Of a stretch of 47,366 bases of DNA, positions 1,641 through 20,200 are shown one piece after another. The notes below the pieces were generated by a model that saw nothing but the letters and a program-made list of their open reading frames with translations, was not told where the DNA came from and searched no databases. The stretch is from IMG/VR virus record IMGVR_UViG_2630968533_000004, one strand, 5' to 3'. The translations under genes were made by a program, and so were the position numbers. This DNA is from a virus (lineage: Duplodnaviria; Heunggongvirae; Uroviricota; Caudoviricetes). Position 1 is the stretch's first letter; each line of letters starts with the position of its first letter.

Positions 1641-4112
1641 TTAAGAATCAGCCTGACTCGGGATCAGTTTTTGCCAGATAGCTGAAACGTATTTTGCCTG
1701 GTAACGGGCGTCATCAAGTGCATTATGGCGCTCACCTTCGAATGGAATAGCCGTTCTGGCATCGAAGTCTATGGCTTTCCCCAGCTCAACGATTGTGCGT
1801 ACATCGCGATCGTTGTAGTAACGCCACGGGCAGGGGATCCCCTGCCGTTCGTATGAACGGCGCAAAATCGTGTTGTCGAAGTTGGCTCCATTTCCCCAGA
1901 CATGAACAAAAAATTCACCGGAGTTTTCGTCGATAAATTCCCGCAATTGTAACAGTGCATCATCTAACGGGATTTCATCGGTCATAATGGCAGATTGCGC
2001 TTCGCGTGATTGTTTAAGCCACCATTTAATGGTGTCCCGATCAATGACTCCGCCAGCAGTTTCCAGATCGATAGTCTTACTAAATTCCGGTCCCATATCT
2101 CCGGTTTGCGGATCGAAAAATATTGCACCTATTGAGATAATCGGGGCATCGGGATTTTTTCCCATGGTTTCAAGGTCGATCATCAGATGAATCCCCGCTC
2201 TGCTGGTGGATGTGAGATTATGATGACCGTTCACCTTAATTAAGGGATCTGACGCCTCGCCAGTTTCACTATCGCTGGCATGATGCTGATTGCTGCCAGT
2301 GTTCTCCTTGTGCTGATGCGCAGTGCCTTCCATTTCCTCCAGATCATTTTTCTGAACTTCAGGCTGATTCTCTCCATCGAATATTTCCTGGTATGTTGCG
2401 TCACCCATCACCGCACCACAATCAGGGCAGTTGCCGCCACCGCTCTGACCGCAGGCGGTGCAGATCTTTTCCGGTTCCTGTTGCACTACTGGTTCAGGTT
2501 GTTTCGTTTCTGGCTCGTTTTGTTGCGTATTTGGGCTGTTTTGTTCCGCTTTCTGGTCGTTCTGTTCCGTTTCTTGCTGGTTCTGGTTCACAGAATCGCG
2601 GGTCTGGATCCCCTTAATCCATTTCGGATCATTCGGGTCGCTAATCCCTTCAACAAATTCACCACGTGATACTGCAAGCAGTTCATCGGCGTCAGGCTGG
2701 CTGATATTGGCTGCCTGCATAATTTTGTTTACTTCGTCAGCGGTAACTTTTACTGACCCTGGTTGTGCGGTCGTGTCAGATGCACCAGTATTTTGTTGTG
2801 AACCTGAGTATGTACCGTTTTTGCGGGCGAAATATTCTTCTTTCGTGATTTCAGTAGCCCCAGCAGACAGCGCCTTATCCAGACCAGAAAGTTTATTTGC
2901 GCGACCGTATTTTTCGCCATCCTTGTCGGTGAAGAGGAAGTAGAACGGCCCCTCACGTTCTACAGATGGTTCGACTTCCACTTTGCATTCGGTTTTTTCG
3001 TTGTCTGGAATTGCCGTTTCCACTGCATCAGTTTCTGGTACTGGCGACGAGAGAGTATCAGTTGCGCTCTGATTTGTTCCTTCATCTTCAAACACGCCCT
3101 TTGTAGTCAGGTATTCAGTAATGTATTTGTTCAGTGCCACAGGGTCTTTGTGAATGTCGATCGGACGTTCACGGACAAGGCCAAAAATAGTCTGGCGGTC
3201 GTAGCGAAGGGCATCAGGCTGTTTGCGCATTGATGCCGAGATACGCTTCCAGTCTTCGCGGTCGTTGTCGATAACTTCATTTTTTGCCCAGCGATGGATG
3301 CTGCCGTCAATGTTTCCGGCATCCACATCACCAGGCCAGAGAGCGTAGGCCAGTTCGTCATCCAGTGTTTTCCATGTCTGCTTGTATTCGCGATGAATGG
3401 CAGCAATGACCGGGTTGATTTTTCCTGTTGAATTTTCAGTGTGCTGTTGATTGGCTCTGGCGCGGGCGAGATCAACAACAGACGTGTATTTTCCGGCTTC
3501 CTTGCGTTCACCTTCGCGACGTTTTTTCCAGATGCGCATCTCTGCCTGAATTTCGGGCCATTTGGCACCAGGCTTACATTTATGCTTAACCCACCCGATG
3601 GCATGCAGCTTAAGCTCCGGATACATAGCGTTAACTTCTGGCATTTTCATCAACGCTTCAACGATATGGCCGTCGAATGTTGCCATGTCTTCCTGCAACA
3701 ATTCCTGTGCGCTAATCACCATATCAACAGTGATGTTTTCACATGTGTCGAACTTAACCATGACAGCGTTCTGTACTTCAGGGGCTAGGTTGTCAAAAGT
3801 GACGTTCATCGGATCGGATTCAGTCTCGACCGGGACAAAGGAAGCAGACGCCTCATCCCAGCGGTTTTCCTGCATATATTCAGCATCCCAGGAATCGAGG
3901 GCAGGGCGGGGTATACCGGGTTTATCCTCGCAAACAAGAAATTTATAAGCGCAGTCCTGAGCAGCCGGATAATGTTCCAGGAATTGCCAGTGAAATTTTG
4001 CGCGGGCGCGACGTTCATCACCGGCTTCAATGGCAGTGGCTACAGCGACGGCACCTTCTTCCTTTATTGCCTGTTCGTCCGGAATGGCGGCGCAAATAAA
4101 GACTTTACTCAT
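1641..4112 (-). CDS. Large exonuclease with C-terminal DnaQ-like (DEDDh) 3'-5' exonuclease domain
   Basis: 823-aa ORF; C-terminus carries MIDLETMG (Exo I), WGNGANFDNTIL (Exo II) and HNALDDARYQAKY (Exo III, H-x4-D) motifs; central CTACGQSGGGNCPDCG zinc-ribbon-like motif and Q/N/E-rich low-complexity linker. Confidence 0.75.
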   Translation of the reverse strand: MSKVFICAAIPDEQAIKEEGAVAVATAIEAGDERRARAKFHWQFLEHYPAAQDCAYKFLVCEDKPGIPRPALDSWDAEYMQENRWDEASASFVPVETESDPMNVTFDNLAPEVQNAVMVKFDTCENITVDMVISAQELLQEDMATFDGHIVEALMKMPEVNAMYPELKLHAIGWVKHKCKPGAKWPEIQAEMRIWKKRREGERKEAGKYTSVVDLARARANQQHTENSTGKINPVIAAIHREYKQTWKTLDDELAYALWPGDVDAGNIDGSIHRWAKNEVIDNDREDWKRISASMRKQPDALRYDRQTIFGLVRERPIDIHKDPVALNKYITEYLTTKGVFEDEGTNQSATDTLSSPVPETDAVETAIPDNEKTECKVEVEPSVEREGPFYFLFTDKDGEKYGRANKLSGLDKALSAGATEITKEEYFARKNGTYSGSQQNTGASDTTAQPGSVKVTADEVNKIMQAANISQPDADELLAVSRGEFVEGISDPNDPKWIKGIQTRDSVNQNQQETEQNDQKAEQNSPNTQQNEPETKQPEPVVQQEPEKICTACGQSGGGNCPDCGAVMGDATYQEIFDGENQPEVQKNDLEEMEGTAHQHKENTGSNQHHASDSETGEASDPLIKVNGHHNLTSTSRAGIHLMIDLETMGKNPDAPIISIGAIFFDPQTGDMGPEFSKTIDLETAGGVIDRDTIKWWLKQSREAQSAIMTDEIPLDDALLQLREFIDENSGEFFVHVWGNGANFDNTILRRSYERQGIPCPWRYYNDRDVRTIVELGKAIDFDARTAIPFEGERHNALDDARYQAKYVSAIWQKLIPSQADS

Positions 4113-4396: not shown

Positions 4397-4581
4397 TGCC
4401 AGCATCCTTTTTGTATCGGACGTAAACGGGCCAACATTGAAAGAATGCATATTTTATTTAATAGCTTCCGTTCGTGTTTTCTCTTGTTAATGGCATCTTC
4501 AGTAAATACAGGGTTACTGATAGTGACACCAATTTCAAAACAACCTTCAGACGTATTAACGTTTGGTAATAACGTTTCCAT
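4393..4581 (-). CDS. dicB: Cell-division inhibitor DicB
   Basis: Internal Met of ORF 4393..4686 gives 62 aa METLLPNVNTSEGCFEIGVTISNPVFTEDAINKRKHERKLLNKICILSMLARLRPIQKGCWQ, near-identical to recalled E. coli DicB; lies directly downstream of DicF. Confidence 0.75.
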   Translation of the reverse strand: METLLPNVNTSEGCFEIGVTISNPVFTEDAINKRKHERKLLNKICILSMLARLRPIQKGCWQ

Positions 4582-4755: not shown

Positions 4756-4808
4756 GGGCGGCAGAGCAGTCACGGAGTAAAACTGATACCGCCAAACGTC
4801 ACCAGAAA
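4756..4808 (-). ncRNA. dicF: DicF small RNA (53 nt) followed by U-tract
   Basis: Reverse complement of 4756..4808 reads TTTCTGGTGACGTTTGGCGGTATCAGTTTTACTCCGTGACTGCTCTGCCGCCC followed by TTTTTAA, matching the recalled DicF sequence; located between ydfA-like and dicB as in Qin. Confidence 0.8.
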
Positions 4809-5974: not shown

Positions 5975-6382
5975 TTATTGATGCTTGTTGCGTTTGCGAG
6001 CCTCTAATAGCTCGGTGAACAGGCGATTAAAATTCTCAACGCGGGCGCGGAGTTCGCTGAGTTGTGCTTGTTGCTCTGATTTAGGAAGTGCGCGATACAA
6101 ACGCAGCATCTCTAACTCATCTTCCGATAAGTCTAAGGCACTATCGAGTGAAACAGGGGGAGCTGGTGTTTTGTCCTCGTCGCCAAACAGTATCCAGGTT
6201 GGTGAACATTGCAATACCTCGGCGAGGCGATGCAAATTTTGCCCGCGCGGGGCTGTATGGTCACTTTCCCATAATGAAATTGATGAGCCAGATACGCCAG
6301 CAGCTTTGCTTAAACCGTTTTGACTTAAGCCTACCTGCTTACGTCTTTCTCTAATGCGTTGACCTAAAGTTTTCTCGTTCAT
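5975..6382 (-). CDS. dicA: DicA-type HTH (XRE-family) repressor
   Basis: Internal Met of ORF 5975..6433 gives 135 aa MNEKTLGQRIRERRKQVGLSQNGLSKAAGVSGSSISLWESDHTAPRGQNLHRLAEVLQCSPTWILFGDEDK...; HTH motif plus C-terminal region resembling recalled DicA; divergent from a Cro-like gene. Confidence 0.85.
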   Translation of the reverse strand: MNEKTLGQRIRERRKQVGLSQNGLSKAAGVSGSSISLWESDHTAPRGQNLHRLAEVLQCSPTWILFGDEDKTPAPPVSLDSALDLSEDELEMLRLYRALPKSEQQAQLSELRARVENFNRLFTELLEARKRNKHQ

Positions 6383-8178: not shown

Positions 8179-8580
8179 GTGGCAAAAGTTTTTACACAAG
8201 AAGAGCGGGAAAAAATTAAAGGGCAGGTGGTGGAACTCGTGCGCCAGAGCGGTCGTGAGACGTTACGGCAACTGGAAGCTAAAACAGGTGCGACTAGATA
8301 TCTGATGAGCGTTCTTGCCAGAGAGCTGGTAGCCAGTGGCGATGTATACAACTCCGGCTACGGGTTATTCCCGTCTGAACAGGCGCGTAAGGACTGGCAA
8401 AACGCCCGCAAAAAACTATCGAGGGCAAAGGTGAAGAAAACAGCTGTGGTTGATCCGGACCTTATCTGGTCGTTACCTGATGGAGAAATACGTCGCTACG
8501 ACAGTCGCCTAAACATAATCTGTCGCGAGTGCCGGATGAGTGAAGTTATGCAGCGCATACTGGCATTTTATCAGGGATAA
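8179..8580 (+). CDS. Hypothetical protein
   Basis: 133-aa ORF with GTG start preceded by AAGGGGGA RBS; basic; function unknown. Confidence 0.5.
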   Translation: MAKVFTQEEREKIKGQVVELVRQSGRETLRQLEAKTGATRYLMSVLARELVASGDVYNSGYGLFPSEQARKDWQNARKKLSRAKVKKTAVVDPDLIWSLPDGEIRRYDSRLNIICRECRMSEVMQRILAFYQG

Positions 8581-8779
8581 TGTTAGGTATTTTAGACGTT
8601 ACTAGATTAAAAAGCATTAGTTCAGGAGTGAATTGACATTCTCATTTTTCATGGCACAGGGTAGATCTGGCGTGGTTGTCCGCTTTGTGCCAGAAGCGGA
8701 CGTTACAATACAATCACTATGCTAATGCGCATTGATATGTGATATAACAATAATCAACCGTTCAAAAAGGAGCATTTAT

Positions 8780-9802
8780 ATGAGCAGGATGATAATTGAT
8801 ACAAATATTCTTTACTCACTAGTTGGTCTGTCGACAAACCAAAAAATAATTAACTCCCCTATAGATCAATTCAAATTATCCATTACGACACCATCACTCA
8901 TAGAAGTGATCTCTAAATATTGCAATGACTTAGGGGCTGTAAAAAAATGCATTAGCCCAATCATAAACGGAAATATTGAACTAATTAGCATTGGTCATAC
9001 TCCAATCTCAAATGAATTTCTTTATAGGTTGCATTTTTCAGACAAAATAGACGAAGTAAAAGATATTATTGATAATGTTAGAGCACTAAAAATATCTAGA
9101 GAGGCTGAGTTTTATAGGTTCATACTCATACTGGTTGTCTCTGGTTTGTTTGAGGTTATTAGAGAAGATGGATACAAGTTTGATAACGATGTACAAAATC
9201 AAAGTCAACTTAGTCTTGTGCAGACTCTACTTGAATCTAATATGGAATTAATTTTAGACTTCTTTAAAGATGAGTTGCGGAATGGATATATTAATGGAAA
9301 TGAGCAGCAATCAGCTTTGAAAGCTTTTGAAACCATGCTTATCGGACTCCTACATGCTTTTCATGTCAACTATCATATGATTAAAACTGACACAGTTAAC
9401 ATTTCCGGAAGCCAAGACAGACTCAAAAATCTGTATGATAGTATAAAAAATGATAATTTTGATAAAAAGTTTAAAAAATATATGGAGAATCCAATATCCC
9501 TTGCCTGCAAAAAAAAACACGAATCAGTAGTTGATAACTACCTGAAAGAAATGGAGGAGGGGATTTCTGGCGCTCGTGGGCTTACTAAGAATTCGTTGAG
9601 CTTTCTAATGAGCAAGGTTGAGGATGCATATAAAAATGGTCGTAAATTACGAAAAAATGACATATTTGACTTTCTAATAGTTATTTCTCTAAATATGCCA
9701 GACACTTTGATTTTAACACTTGATAAAGGTTTTTTAAAAGACCTTAAAGATCTTCACCCTAACAGCTATAAAAAGTGTCTGGATTTCGGTTTTGTAAATT
9801 AA
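8780..9802 (+). CDS. AT-rich cargo protein, candidate PIN-like nuclease fold (possible defence / abortive-infection gene)
   Basis: 340 aa from ATG at 8780 with AAGGAG RBS; N-terminus MSRMIIDTNILYSLVG resembles the start of PIN domains (catalytic Asp in DTN), C-terminus DTLILTLDKGF resembles a PIN C-terminal strand; K/N/I-rich composition, visibly lower GC than flanking phage genes. Confidence 0.65.
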   Translation: MSRMIIDTNILYSLVGLSTNQKIINSPIDQFKLSITTPSLIEVISKYCNDLGAVKKCISPIINGNIELISIGHTPISNEFLYRLHFSDKIDEVKDIIDNVRALKISREAEFYRFILILVVSGLFEVIREDGYKFDNDVQNQSQLSLVQTLLESNMELILDFFKDELRNGYINGNEQQSALKAFETMLIGLLHAFHVNYHMIKTDTVNISGSQDRLKNLYDSIKNDNFDKKFKKYMENPISLACKKKHESVVDNYLKEMEEGISGARGLTKNSLSFLMSKVEDAYKNGRKLRKNDIFDFLIVISLNMPDTLILTLDKGFLKDLKDLHPNSYKKCLDFGFVN

Positions 9803-10873
9803 AAATATATTGATGTAAAATAAAACGCACCCACATTTAACTTAGCTAGACTATATCCTTCAATTATTCTATCTGCTTTTTGTTAAATGTGGGGTTGCAG
9901 ATGTTACGAGTCAATTAAATTTGCAAGTCAGGTAGAATTGATAAGAATTGCAATACGAATCCGTGAACATTAATGCTAACGCTAAGTATACGAAAGATAT
10001 TGTAAATATACTTCTTTTTTTGTTTTTAAGTTCTTTTATTTGACAGTAGTTCCATCATTCAATTGCGTATTATCTTCCAATGCCAGTGACACTCCCTCAT
10101 TATGAGAGGATTGTGGTAATCAAAAGAAAAATTAATATCACGCCAAGAATATTCGAAACCAACCCTATGGTGTTAAGTCCTGGTGATGTCATTTAGTTTG
10201 CTCTAGGTTTATTATTCAGAAAGCAAAGAATATTCGTTAAATTATTATGTTAGCTTTAATTATTAAAAAACATGTTAATTATCATCAAATGAGCACTTAT
10301 CATCATTTTAGTCAAAGAGGTAGTGAGTATTCATTCTGGATCATAACTGCCTTCCTGTTTACGCTAGTGTTTTTTAAAGTCGATGTCCGCTCATCGCTCA
10401 AAGCGGACTAGAAGGTTAGCTTGTGTCGGACTTTGCGTATTAAATGACTAGTGGTTGAGCCCCATTTCCACAGAAAAAATCAGAGAAACTATACCCAATA
10501 GTTGTATTGAATCACTGACGAGACAGCCTCATATTCATCAGGACTGGTGTACGTCCAATACAGGAGGTTGTGGTGCTGGTTCTCAAATGTGCGCTGGCTA
10601 TTACGGCTGTAATGGCGATTTATTGTCTTGCTATTGTTCTTATGGATCGCCTTTCTGACTGATTTCACATTGGCGAGGTAACGGTAGTTAAGTAGAATGG
10701 CTGCGGGTGCTTGAGGCTATCTGCCTCGGGCATGAACACCAACGGCAGATAGAGAAAAGCCCCAGTTAACATTACGCGTCCTGCAAGACGCTTAACATTA
10801 ATCTGAGGCCAATTTCATGCTAGACACATGTAGGTTAGCCTCTTACGTGCCGAAAGGCAAGGAGAAGCAGGCT

Positions 10874-11029
10874 ATGAAGCAGCAAAAGGCGATGTTAATC
10901 GCCCTGATCGTCATCTGTTTAACCGTCATAGTGACGGCACTGGTAACGAGGAAAGACCTCTGCGAGGTACGAATCCGAACCGGGCAGACGGAGGTCGCTG
11001 TCTTCACAGCTTACGAACCTGAGGAGTAA
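10874..11029 (+). CDS. hokD: Hok/Gef-family type I toxin
   Basis: 51 aa MKQQKAMLIALIVICLTVIVTALVTRKDLCEVRIRTGQTEVAVFTAYEPEE matches recalled HokD/RelF; ORF extends upstream in-frame (10817). Confidence 0.85.
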   Translation: MKQQKAMLIALIVICLTVIVTALVTRKDLCEVRIRTGQTEVAVFTAYEPEE

Positions 11030-14241: not shown

Positions 14242-14317
14242 GGCCCTTTAGCTCAGTGGTGAGAGCGAGCGACTCATAATCGCCAGGTCGCTGGTTCAAA
14301 TCCAGCAAGGGCCACCA
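14242..14317 (+). tRNA. tRNA-Ile2 (anticodon CAU, lysidine type) or Met
   Basis: 76-nt cloverleaf folded by hand: acceptor GGCCCTT/AAGGGCC, D-stem GCTC/GAGC, anticodon loop CTCATAA, T-arm GCTGG-TTCAAAT-CCAGC, CCA end; close to recalled E. coli ileX. Confidence 0.85.
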
Positions 14318-14417: not shown

Positions 14418-14494
14418 GCGTTGTTAGCTCAGCCGGACAGAGCAATTGCCTTCTAAGCAATCGGTCACTGGTTCGAATCCAGTACAGCGCGCCA
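14418..14494 (+). tRNA. tRNA-Arg (anticodon UCU)
   Basis: Acceptor GCGTTGT/ACAGCGC, anticodon stem ATTGC/GCAAT with loop CTTCTAA, T-loop GGTTCGAATCC, CCA end. Confidence 0.85.
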
Positions 14495-14958: not shown

Positions 14959-15491
14959 ATACATATCTGGATTATCACCTGTTACGGTAAAAAGTGATTG
15001 CTTACTGTTTTTGTGAATGGCATTGCAGCAGCCGGATAATGTCAGTGCTGGCTGACGGTGTGCTGGTGGCGGGTGTGGTGGTTGTTGCTTTCCCGTTGCT
15101 GAAAAAGAAAACGCCAGACTGTTAGCCGGGTATCAGTTAGCGGGAGAAATTTTTAAATACTTCACAATTCAGGCGGTTGACTGTTCTCTGGTTTGCGGGG
15201 AGTTTGTTAAAAGAAACTGGCATGGTGAATCCCCCTGTGCGGAGGGGCAATCAGCGAGTAGGTATATGGGATAATCGCGGATTCAGGTGCTGGTACTGAA
15301 TTCACCGGGAGGCACCCGGCACCATGCACTTCAATAGATTCTCTCCACATTATGGATATTCTTTCAGAATATCCCACGCAGACTTTGTGTAAATGTTAAC
15401 AAATGTGCGTTTTATTTGATCTGATTCGCTGTTTGAGCGTCCAAAACAACGGTATATATAATCCTTTACTATATGACATATGTGAGGAAAA

Positions 15492-15920: not shown

Positions 15921-16070
15921 TATTTATTGTTTTGTAATAAACGGTTTCGGCTTAGGTTTGTTCTGACACAACTACGGCACTGAGCTAAATTTAGCGGATA
16001 GTCAGCTCTGAGCCAGTGGCGGACGTAACAACTACTATTGCTGAGATTTTAATGGATTGAGGAGCAAGAA

Positions 16071-17249: not shown

Positions 17250-18273
<1,024 letters not shown>

Positions 18274-18637
18274 ATTAATATTAAATCGGATTATTTTTAG
18301 CGCTGAATGTGAAATTTAAATAAAAAGGACTCTTCCATGAGTCAAAATCCTTGAAATCTTAAGGGTAAGATAAAAGGTCATTAGACAGAATGACACGTTT
18401 TATTAATAAATAAAGCTATTGTTTCATTCGTGTGTTTTTCTTTACAAAAGTAATCCTTGCTATGGTTGGTTAATCATGCGTTAATGGTGTTCTGGTTTGT
18501 TACAAAATTATCTGAAGCAGTCATTGTTATAATTTTATTATTTGTACCTCTTGAGATTTCCTTGTTGGTTTTTCTCTCTGATATTTTTTTTTCGGACCAT
18601 TCTGCCCAAGGGCTAACTTCTTCAAAAGGTAATAATG

Positions 18638-18850
18638 ATGTCTAACAAAATGACTGGTTTAGTGAAATGGTTTAACCCTGAAAAAGGTTTTGGTTTCATC
18701 ACGCCGAAAGATGGTAGCAAAGATGTGTTTGTGCATTTCTCAGCTATTCAGAGCAACGATTTCAAAACGTTAACTGAGAATCAGGAAGTCGAATTTGGTA
18801 TTGAGAACGGACCTAAAGGCCCTGCAGCTGTTCATGTAGTGGCACTTTGA
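18638..18850 (+). CDS. cspI: Cold-shock protein (CspA family, CspI-like)
   Basis: [38 protein letters not shown]... with RNP1/RNP2 motifs; long AT-rich 5' leader typical of csp genes. Confidence 0.85.
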
Positions 18851-19121
18851 GGTAGAAAATATTACAAACCATATTCACTTTAGATGCCCGTGTTGCCATG
18901 GTTCTCAGTATAGAACATCATCTTTTGATGTTTCTGACAGAAATCCTTTCGGGGCAAAATGTATCTTTTGTAAATCAATGATGATTACATTTGATAATAT
19001 TTCACAATACTTAAATGTTAGCCATCTGTCGTTAGATTTAAGAAAGTGAAAATGAAGGCTCCTTCGGGAGCTTTTTTGCTTAGTGTCTAGTCGATGGATA
19101 CTCACATATTACGGTAACATT

Positions 19122-19352
19122 ATGAAAAAAATAATAGTTTTTTTTAACTCTGAACCAGCAATGGTAGTGCCAGTGATGACCGGAGTTAACACCATCATGC
19201 GTGAATATCCAAATGGCGAAACAACACACCTCACTGTAATGGCTGCAGGGTTTCCATCTCTGACCGGAGATCATAAAGTCATTTATGTAGCAGCGGATCG
19301 ACATGTAACTTCAGAAGAAATTCTGGAAGCAGCAATGAGACTCTTGAATTGA
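19122..19352 (+). CDS. Hypothetical small protein
   Basis: ATG inside ORF 19083..19352 (MKKIIVFFNSEPAMVVPVMTG...); no family recognised. Confidence 0.4.
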   Translation: MKKIIVFFNSEPAMVVPVMTGVNTIMREYPNGETTHLTVMAAGFPSLTGDHKVIYVAADRHVTSEEILEAAMRLLN

Positions 19353-19521
19353 TTTGATTCTAATGCATTGATAATAAATGATAATCATCTTTATCTGTTT
19401 GTGTGAAATTTAGACCGTCGTATGTTGATTATTGCGATGTTTCATCTTATCTTTTATACGTTTGCTCCATATAATTGACACTACTGTGTACCAGGACAGT
19501 CATAACAGACTAAAAGAGGAA

Positions 19522-19698
19522 ATGATGAACATTGAAGAGTTAAAAACAAAAACAGAAGCAGATATTTCTGAATATATAACAAAAAAAATCATTGAGCTTA
19601 AGAAAAAGACCGGGAAAGAAGTTACCAGTATCCAGTTTACTGCACGGGAAAAAATGACTGGTCTTGAAAGCTATGATATCAAGATTGATTTAATCTAG
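19522..19698 (+). CDS. gnsB: GnsA/GnsB-family small protein
   Basis: MMNIEELKTKTEADISEYITKKIIELKKKTGKEVTSIQFTAREKMTGLESYDIKIDLI; AAGAGGA RBS; matches recalled GnsB pattern. Confidence 0.7.
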   Translation: MMNIEELKTKTEADISEYITKKIIELKKKTGKEVTSIQFTAREKMTGLESYDIKIDLI

Positions 19699-19993
19699 CA
19701 TGTTTATAGTATTAGCATCAATTTCTCATCAGATGCTATTCAACAATACAAATTACCCATAAACCTCGTTTTTACGGGGTTTTGTTATATTTAAACATTA
19801 CCGAATAGATATAAATCTCGATTGTCGATGGTATTGGTTGTGTGACAATACCTAGTCTTTCCGGTATGCCTGAAGAGAATACAAACGACAGATTATGTAA
19901 GGGAAACGCGCTGAAACTTTCACTCTTTCATGCTGAGTGATTTGACGTTATATTTTTAGCCGCAAGTGAAGAGCAAACGAATGGAGCGACAAA

Positions 19994-20200
19994 ATGCATA
20001 AAGATCAATACACTGATGCCCCCTCCCAGGAGCAGGTTCGTGTAAAAACTATGCTTAATAGCACCATTTCGATGGGTTACCCGGATGTTGTAATTGCATG
20101 TATAGAACATCAAGTATCTCTGGAAGCATTCAGGGCAATTGAGGCCGCGTTAGTAAAGCACGATAAGAATACGAAGGATTATTCCCTGGTGGTTGACTGA
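19994..20200 (+). CDS. Hypothetical small protein
   Basis: 68-aa ORF, no recognised family. Confidence 0.35.

Follow-up and report, generated by a model that had tools for sequence, protein, structure and literature searches.

The window, by which we mean the whole 47,366-nt stretch analysed (IMG/VR virus record IMGVR_UViG_2630968533_000004), contains a Qin-like prophage with a 1.73-kb island of low GC content (32–33%) between the replication genes and sok/hokD. The gene in this island (positions 8780–9802, plus strand) begins with ATG and encodes a protein of 340 amino acids. A ribosome-binding site, AAGGAG, was read directly from the sequence at 8767–8772 (plus strand), with the start codon 7 nt downstream. 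Both the site and the open reading frame had been named in a preliminary description of this DNA and were borne out. The same description had called the product rich in lysine, asparagine, and isoleucine and the gene much lower in GC than its neighbors, and the measured values agreed. The leading residues of the protein were L (12.1%), I (10.3%), K (9.4%), S (8.2%), N (7.9%), and D (7.6%), and the GC content was 0.324 for the gene and 0.326 for the island (8678–10408) vs. 0.481 for the upstream replication genes, 0.511 for hok–rusA, and 0.485 for the entire window.

Upstream, the nearest annotated gene (DUF977) is 201 bp from the gene of interest, and the interval contains just a 30-codon ORF (8633–8725), which crosses the left boundary repeat of the island. 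Downstream, sok was located at 10705–10879 (Rfam match, 115 bits) and hokD at 10874–11029 (transferred from an identical prophage annotated in RefSeq), so the gene is indeed upstream of hok, as first described. The arrangement given for Escherichia coli K-12 Qin, with relB-relE directly upstream of hokD, was also correct.

The protein is identical in 340 of 340 positions to the DS-3 sequence in Table S8 of DeWeirdt et al. and corresponds to WP_022645725.1, which is annotated in RefSeq at the matching position in strain FDAARGOS_497. WP_022645725.1 is DS-3 (working ID PIN8) of the DefensePredictor study (DeWeirdt et al., bioRxiv January 2025/Science 2026; PMC13092281). Because of this 100% identity, the gene is not a new discovery: a study made public in January 2025 had already predicted and cloned it, exposed it to phages, and mutated it. 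The DS-3 cloning primers map exactly to window positions 8680–8701 and 10852–10873, and the authors cloned 8680–10873 on a low-copy plasmid with the native promoter in E. coli MG1655, where DS-3 was tolerated (PMC13092281). On cells with this clone, T4, RB69, and a third T-even phage plated 10^3.5- to 10^5.6-fold less well, and in the panel of 24 phages protection was recorded only against Tevenvirinae (PMC13092281). D7A and E42A mutants were built, and mutation of catalytic residues was reported to abolish defense; a measured value was obtained for E42A on phage Candy, and the loss of defense is otherwise as stated in the text of the paper (PMC13092281). The authors describe DS-3 as a split PIN made up of one protein, for which they saw no antitoxin, and their HHpred analysis assigned residues 1–75 to PIN with a probability of 0.91 (PMC13092281). 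Thus, a single-gene anti-phage function, which had been proposed from the letters of the window, belongs to an identical protein that defends MG1655 against T-even phages, and the suggested checks (a clone that includes the native upstream region, challenge with a phage panel, and mutation of the catalytic Asp) were already published (PMC13092281). The catalytic Asp itself had been misnumbered as D6; the correct residue is D7. Since the active clone begins at 8680 and the vector has no upstream promoter, a promoter is located within 8680–8779. A consensus scan placed a candidate sigma-70 promoter at 8687–8714 (plus strand), with −35 GTGCCA in the loop of the left repeat and −10 TACAAT; this exact position is inferred from the scan. 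The published clone also contained ~1.07 kb of DNA downstream of the gene, which may therefore contribute to defense. Our protein does not differ from DS-3; the paper does not include the cassette boundaries, the decayed ORF, the family census, or the neighboring defense systems reported below.

The preliminary description had proposed PIN-like termini split by an insert of about 200 residues, and this architecture was upheld by the fold search, the conserved acidic residues, and the PIN matches of relatives. According to secondary structure, the N-terminal part of the PIN domain comprises residues 1–75 (8780–9004, plus strand), with strands at 3–6, 32–36, and 67–69 and the acidic residues D7 and E42. 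It is followed by an all-helical insert (residues ~76–290; 9005–9649, plus strand) with the invariant E108 and the near-invariant Y170. The C-terminal part (residues 291–340; 9650–9799, plus strand) contains K292, N293, D294, D297, a strand at 309–312, and D315. Among 97 relatives, D7, E42, E108, N293, and D297 were invariant, and K292, D294, and D315 were at least 90% conserved. The acidic positions fit the PIN pattern, being placed after strand 1, at the helix after strand 2, at the helix before strand 4, and after strand 4. In the folded protein they may gather in a single pocket, perhaps together with E108. At 50% identity, the family has 154 representatives, almost all of them ~340 amino acids long.

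A fold search indicated a three-layer alpha/beta/alpha fold with a parallel sheet. The best structural matches listed were VapC-type RNases and rRNA-processing PINs with 8–22% identity; there was no flap endonuclease among the matches listed, and no specific match was found for the helical insert. Pfam PIN (PF01850) was matched by 41 of the 97 relatives at E values up to 0.01 (best 1.3e-7), and six of the 97 gave weak PIN_12 matches. DS-3 itself matched nothing in the Pfam, PADLOC, PHROGs, and NCBIfam profile libraries: Pfam gave no PIN match even at E up to 10, and PADLOC-DB v2.0.0, which dates from 2023, before DS-3, gave zero families at the same limit. In a profile-to-PDB sequence search, the matches to VapC were non-significant (E 0.16–0.6). 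The earlier statement that no confident family could be assigned holds for these four libraries but not for the literature, where the protein is DS-3. As DS-3 falls below the Pfam PIN threshold, its membership in the PIN superfamily (CL0280) rests on fold and transitive homology. The fold search supports a VapC-like PIN fold in two parts separated by a helical domain of ~215 residues. This insert, located after the third strand, accounts for the length of DS-3 (340 amino acids) compared to VapC (PF01850, ~130 amino acids). DS-3 also differs from VapBC in the lack of a gene for a VapB-like antitoxin in the contexts examined. DS-5 is likewise a PIN-family nuclease with catalytic residues required for phage defense but, unlike DS-3, requires a second protein (DUF5830/AcrIF4-like), and its N-terminal PIN_12 domain is not split; according to the authors, the two are not closely related (PMC13092281).

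The AT-rich tail downstream of the DS-3 gene is ~600 bp long. It had been described as non-coding; its AT-richness stood, but it is not simply non-coding, since a convergent ORF (~9912–10192, minus strand) persists there as a frameshifted remnant; intact copies of this ORF occur elsewhere. The intact ORF encodes 95 amino acids with two transmembrane segments and is present in the Enterobacter and Serratia copies of the cassette. In the window, this ORF differs by two 2-nt deletions, an insertion, another deletion, and a CAA-to-TAA change. Members of this ORF family were also found without DS-3. We considered the membrane protein as a partner of DS-3 and rejected it: the ORF is decayed here, missing beside four distant relatives of DS-3, and solitary elsewhere.

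The edges of the island, first placed at 8580 and 10450, are at 8678 and 10408, as defined by inter-genus DNA similarity and a repeat motif. The similarity (~91%) to cassettes of Enterobacter and Serratia starts at 8678 with a 24-nt inverted repeat of the A type (GTCCGCTTTGTGCCAGAAGCGGAC; 8678–8701, plus strand) and stops at a 24-nt inverted repeat of the B type (GTCCGCTCATCGCTCAAAGCGGAC; 10385–10408, plus strand). The repeat consensus is GTCCGCT-N4-GC-N4-AGCGGAC, with the A type upstream and the B type downstream of the cargo; two copies of the motif were observed in the window vs. 0.03 expected. Both repeats fold into hairpins: that of the left one has 8 bp and z −4.7, and that of the right one has z −4.6. 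Flank homology in further E. coli genomes ends at the far edge of the left repeat, and in strain GSH8M-2 a PD-T7-1-like cassette is closed by the same B repeat and the same right flank. The A-cargo-B arrangement was found in 47 cassettes from viral contigs, and the repeats bound other defense cargo in P2-like, P4-like, and lambdoid elements. Neighboring cassettes are linked by a conserved 66-nt unit of B repeat, spacer CTTCAGCTCAGTTACCTG, and A repeat. The A repeat is also present in high copy number in genomes of Xanthobacteraceae. In P2, the same A-type repeat of 24 nt directly follows gene G, before fun(Z), and the G-FI junction of the P2-like phage 899 contains two cargo genes arranged as A-cargo-B-18 nt-A-cargo-B. 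An empty site joining both flanks via one repeat was found in none of 5426 E. coli genomes, and no Rfam family covering the boundary repeats was found. Maintenance of the repeats by covariation as RNA or ssDNA hairpins is disfavored by the 4 compensatory changes among 125 changed stem pairs, a weak count, since the sample was picked by exact stems.

The DS-3 gene was present in 72 of the 5426 complete E. coli genomes; the phage collection contained its flanks only, with no copy of the gene. The cassettes with ~91% DNA identity are located in the tail-fiber region of an Enterobacter prophage and next to a P4-like satellite in Serratia. Neighbors of DS-3 differed in every context compared, and none was conserved. 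Each of the four distant relatives inspected had a known defense system within ~3 kb, namely Shango SngB/C, an MkoC-like Mokosh protein, RosmerTA RmrA in a Tn7-like element, and DarTG. In K-12, relBE occupies the slot upstream of hokD; other strains have a PD-T7-1-like gene or an NgoMIV-type restriction-modification pair there. A 341-amino-acid protein in the matching slot of strain GSH8M-2 was rejected as a DS-3 paralogue, being PD-T7-1-like. K-12 relBE is, like DS-3, a nuclease-based stress or defense module directly upstream of hokD, but RelE is a ribosome-dependent mRNA interferase with the antitoxin RelB and is unrelated to DS-3 in sequence and fold; the repeat-bounded cassette adjoining relBE in K-12 contains flxA.

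Taken together, the island 8678–10408 is very probably a cargo cassette that a Qin-like lambdoid prophage acquired horizontally in its post-replication slot, with DS-3, a stand-alone anti-phage nuclease, as the product of its sole intact gene. By analogy with VapC, DS-3 would be a metal-dependent ribonuclease; the loss of defense reported for the catalytic mutants points indirectly to nuclease activity. Uninfected cells would tolerate it because the helical insert holds the nuclease inactive or limits its substrate. A cue specific to T-even infection would lift this restraint, and the released enzyme would cut tRNA, rRNA, or mRNA, so that translation and phage production stop; the infected cell may then either die, as in the abortive infection suggested at first, or survive. 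RNA cleavage and auto-inhibition are assumptions of this scheme.

It is unlikely, although conceivable, that DS-3 is directed at DNA instead, as a flap-endonuclease-like nuclease with the insert as an arch or clamp, and targets T-even DNA or replication and recombination intermediates. The DNA of T-even phages contains glucosyl-hydroxymethylcytosine and is replicated in a recombination-dependent manner; flap endonucleases, for their part, belong to the PIN-like enzymes and have helical insertions. Such a nuclease would fit these features. The protection recorded only against Tevenvirinae in the 24-phage panel agrees with it as well (PMC13092281). The top structural matches were nevertheless VapC-type RNases and rRNA-processing PINs, with no flap endonuclease among those listed, the insert had no specific counterpart, and the relatives matched Pfam PIN and PIN_12 only.

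We regard as rather improbable a conventional toxin–antitoxin pair, in which a small RNA or peptide encoded in the AT-rich downstream DNA or in the 100 bp upstream would restrain DS-3 until infection leads to its loss. VapC-type PIN toxins normally require an antitoxin (type II toxin–antitoxin systems), and the tested clone contained all of 9803–10873. Tolerance of DS-3 in MG1655 (PMC13092281) would also be explained. Against this, no adjacent co-oriented antitoxin gene of the VapBC type, which is usually upstream and overlapping, was found beside the DS-3 gene. The only upstream candidate is the 30-codon ORF across the left repeat, whereas the small downstream ORF is decayed in E. coli and has the scattered distribution described above. 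No neighbor is conserved across DS-3 contexts, and the authors saw no antitoxin (PMC13092281). Least probable by far is a role in the prophage itself, such as RNA processing or lysogeny control, with protection against T-even phages as a by-product of expression from a plasmid. Such a role would suit a gene of the early-right operon region, which here has replication genes on one side and nin-like genes on the other; but the ~91% identical cassette occupies a tail-fiber region in Enterobacter and adjoins a satellite in Serratia, distant relatives reside in Tn7 cargo and defense islands, the gene is carried by just 72 E. coli genomes, and the protective clone was low-copy with the native promoter (PMC13092281).

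For the repeats, we tentatively propose, with somewhat less than even confidence, that they are sites of a dedicated, integron-like cassette exchange by a putative recombinase, which would shuttle defense genes among lambdoid prophages, P2-like phages, P4-like satellites, and chromosomal islands of Enterobacterales. Movement at the repeats is favored by homology that breaks exactly at them, both between genera and between E. coli genomes; the lack of an empty site in the 5426 genomes and the small number of compensatory stem changes do not support it. At the Z/fun moron locus of P2-like phages, flanking inverted repeats were reported to allow site-specific exchange (Nilsson et al., 2004, as summarized in PMC8987985); from this summary, we infer that those repeats are the 24-nt repeats found here. 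Both the P2 Z/fun locus and the DS-3 locus hold low-GC defense cargo; the former is located at a tail-fiber/sheath junction, whereas the latter is the post-replication slot in a lambdoid prophage. Searches by repeat sequence or keywords retrieved no description of the repeats, and no mention of cassette exchange was found in the hotspot papers searched. If the exchange is real, its generality, the two repeat types, and the defense cargo would be new.

The case of DS-3 indicates that reading of raw sequence can find a genuine defense gene missed by every curated profile library. The exact repeat-bounded structure of the cassette provides a handle on how single defense genes hop between unrelated phage hotspots.

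The gene at 8780–9802 (plus strand; 340 codons and a stop) is preceded by a ribosome-binding site AAGGAG at 8767–8772 on the same strand, seven bases 5' of the ATG. By composition count, the GC content was 0.324 for the gene and 0.326 for 8678–10408, compared to 0.481 for the upstream replication genes, 0.511 for the downstream hok-to-rusA segment, and 0.485 for the whole window. Leucine, isoleucine, lysine, serine, asparagine, and aspartate are abundant in the protein. An Rfam match places sok at 10705–10879, and hokD (10874–11029) was carried over from the RefSeq annotation of an identical prophage, which is inserted at ynfA-rspAB. In that annotation, the order on the 5' side is integrase, excisionase, exonuclease, dicB, repressor/cro, YdaT-like, replication gene, and DUF977; the gene of interest is followed by hokD, rem, ydfU, rusA, Q, tRNAs, lysis genes, and terminase. 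Apart from small points, the preliminary description of the reading frame, its ribosome-binding site, low GC, and hok neighbourhood agrees with the ORF, GC, Rfam, and RefSeq data. Its placing of relBE in K-12 Qin was also correct, relB-relE lying directly upstream of hokD there.

Ordinary Qin-type prophage features of the window include the DicF sRNA (4756–4807, minus strand), tRNA-Met(CAT) (14242–14317, annotated as tRNA-Ile in RefSeq, as expected for a CAT anticodon when lysidine-modified), tRNA-Arg(TCT) (14418–14494), and an STnc100 sRNA match (15191–15381). A second low-GC stretch (18250–20000, GC 0.32–0.38) overlaps an Rfam cspA thermoregulator match (18479–18896). The identical RefSeq prophage has cspI and ymcF annotated there, and the stretch looks like a further cargo region.

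The RefSeq accession at the position of the gene is WP_022645725.1. The DefensePredictor study of DeWeirdt et al. (PMC13092281; preprint 10.1101/2025.01.08.631726, January 2025) lists it among its supplementary data, complete with sequence, under the working name PIN8, with the final name DS-3, and describes a lone protein whose PIN domain is divided between its two ends, with no antitoxin; all 340 of 340 positions of the window translation equal the published sequence. The published cloning primers map without mismatch to 8680–8701 and 10852–10873, therefore the tested fragment corresponds to window 8680–10873. In that study, a pSC101-origin plasmid lacking a promoter 5' of the insert served as the vector, and protection (−log10 efficiency of plating, screen and repeat) was 3.48 and 4.48 for T4, 5.60 and 5.20 for RB69, and 4.70 and 4.30 for Candy (phiLS50-11, Tevenvirinae). 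Among the Table S7 rows listed, PIN8 occurs only with these three phages of the 24-phage panel. The catalytic mutants D7A and E42A were made, and E42A gave a value of 0 on Candy (PMC13092281). The island gene, which had been proposed from sequence as an anti-phage candidate, is thus DS-3, a defence gene previously described and validated by experiment: the identical protein had been cloned, challenged with phages, and mutated, with the predicted outcome (PMC13092281).

DS-3 had no matching model in Pfam, PADLOC, PHROGs, or NCBIfam. A word-indexed search yielded 26 relatives (Serratia, Enterobacter, Proteus, and metagenomes), and an exhaustive profile search yielded 154 representatives at 50% identity, nearly all of about 340 residues and aligned end to end. 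In an alignment of 97 of these 154, D7, E42, E108, N293, and D297 were invariant, and T8, N9, Y12, Y170, K292, D294, and D315 were at least 90% conserved. Pfam PIN was matched by 41 of the 97 relatives (best E 1.3e-7) and PIN_12 by 6. The AlphaFold2 model (pLDDT 89.8, 21-sequence alignment) has strands at 3–6, 32–36, 67–69, and 309–312, with residues ~76–290 all helical. The modelled fold, the conserved acidic residues, and the Pfam PIN matches of relatives support the suggestion of PIN-like termini around a long insert, that is, a split PIN domain. E108, in the first long helix past strand 3, and Y170, within the insert, might serve as a fifth active-site residue or make a regulatory contact.

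DS-3 acts as a one-gene system under its native promoter and protects against T-even phages, and this defence depends on the catalytic residues, as the paper reports. By analogy with VapC, the protein would cleave RNA; before infection the insert would block or gate the active site, keeping the enzyme harmless, and a T-even-specific cue would activate it. The T-even-only spectrum would also fit a DNA-directed, flap-endonuclease-like activity, which is possible, though unsupported by any of the fold matches listed. A rival reading, with an antitoxin hidden downstream of the gene within the cloned fragment, is unlikely: that stretch is not conserved beside the four distant relatives examined, and the one ORF it holds is decayed. 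The ORF in question is the remnant of a 95-aa reading frame with two hydrophobic segments (two-transmembrane) at ~9912–10192 on the minus strand, intact in the Enterobacter and Serratia cassettes and carrying several frameshifts and a stop in the window. The AT-rich tail, taken earlier as non-coding, holds this decayed ORF. The 95-aa family (12 clusters) is also seen where DS-3 is lacking: in Shewanella, and in other lambdoid prophages, where it follows the replication P gene. It is therefore a hitch-hiker; decayed here, absent beside the four distant relatives, and found alone elsewhere, it was rejected as a DS-3 partner.

On the four contigs examined, distant relatives (39–63% identical) had other defence genes as neighbours (E-values in parentheses): Shango at L008 (SngB 4e-182, SngC 4e-243), an MkoC-like Mokosh helicase at L009 (3.6e-64), RosmerTA RmrA as Tn7-like transposon cargo adjoining a DUF4238 gene at L010 (5.5e-140), and DarT/DarG at L011 (3.7e-38 and 1.9e-79). 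No conserved partner gene was present at any of the four loci. The genomic context of the relatives supports a defence role.

The island is a discrete repeat-bounded cassette. DNA similarity of ~91% extends across 8678–10408 to an Enterobacter hormaechei prophage and across 8682–10404 to a Serratia liquefaciens locus, with nothing beyond; the Enterobacter copy lies between tail-fibre gene fragments close to a SIR2 gene, and the Serratia copy adjoins a P4-like satellite. Each end of the similarity falls at a copy of the 24-nt inverted repeat GTCCGCT-N4-GC-N4-AGCGGAC: an A-type copy at 8678–8701 (loop TTGTGCCAGA) and a B-type copy at 10385–10408 (loop CATCGCTCAA). Two copies in the window compare with 0.03 expected, and both fold as hairpins (z ~−4.6). 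A third, degenerate A-like repeat (16001–16024, GTCAGCTCTGAGCCAGTGGCGGAC), located downstream of the Q/tRNA region with a TolA-like gene on either side, may be another cargo boundary.

The DS-3 island was present in only 72 of 5426 complete E. coli genomes and was 100% identical in all 25 copies listed. A chimeric query in which a single repeat joined the two flanks gave no empty site among the 5426 genomes; its matches extended from one flank or the other across the repeat and ended at its far edge. At the position following DUF977, other E. coli strains carried QueH alone, QueH with an NgoMIV-type restriction-modification pair, or a disrupted methyltransferase. At this position in strain GSH8M-2 (L013, 4499–6634; repeats at 4499 and 6611), a 156-aa unknown protein and a 341-aa PD-T7-1/PD-T7-5-like protein (PD-T7-1-like match, E 2.3e-68) lie between these A and B repeats, and the outer flanks match those of the window. 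This locus is a direct example of cassette replacement at the site. In K-12 Qin (L012, 5982–6996; repeats at 5982 and 6973), the repeat pair encloses flxA, which may be cassette cargo; the ydfV ORF, as annotated, contains the A repeat, and ydfV may therefore not be a real gene.

A bare-motif scan of viral contigs gave at least 120 loci. The repeat occurs in lambdoid, P2-like, and P4-like elements, and further copies lie at 3041, 5899, and 7616 in comparison locus L002, 2580 and 5634 in L011, 3297, 5001, 5043, and 6478 in L137, and 1336 in L139. Of the 130 exact-stem matches listed in the scan, 119 had loops that differed by no more than one base from the A core (TGTGCCA) or B core (TCGCTCA), compared to 5.8% expected of random loops. 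Adjacent repeats formed at least 47 A-then-B pairs enclosing 0.6–3.5 kb of mostly low-GC DNA, and at least 16 tight B-then-A junctions, in most of which the two repeats are separated by the 18-nt spacer CTTCAGCTCAGTTACCTG. The order is A-cargo-B, tandem cassettes being joined by a B repeat, the conserved spacer, and an A repeat. Cargo ORFs among the matches listed included DarT/DarG, TIR, SIR2, SLATT, DRT-type reverse transcriptases, ThsA- and LmuA-like proteins, PDC-S35, adenosine deaminase, and RelA/SpoT domains, as well as non-defence genes. The A-type repeat (e.g., GTCCGCTTTGTGCCAATAGCGGAC) was also dispersed in high copy in Xanthobacteraceae, Pseudolabrys, and other Hyphomicrobiales (L146–L225, genome contig scan), with up to 8 copies in 8 kb and 183 A versus 2 B among the matches listed; the same 24-mer is common to Alpha- and Gammaproteobacteria.

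In phage P2, an A repeat stands between gene G and fun(Z), immediately past G. In the P2-like phage 899, the region flanked by the tail-fibre assembly and sheath genes has the order A-cargo-B-18 nt-A-cargo-B. Flanking inverted repeats and site-specific exchange were described for the Z/fun locus of P2-like phages (Nilsson et al. 2004, as summarised in PMC8987985), and we infer from that summary that these are probably the same repeats. A keyword search of the hotspot literature found no mention of the repeats in the text it reached. In a sample selected by exact stems, 4 of 125 changed stem pairs were compensated. A site bound by protein in double-stranded form, or copies in decay, would explain this better than a structure that covariation maintains. 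Cassette exchange may be site-specific, or simply homologous at a conserved regulatory hairpin. With DS-3 already published, the gene is of low interest as a discovery; what most merits follow-up is the organisation of the cassette between its repeats.
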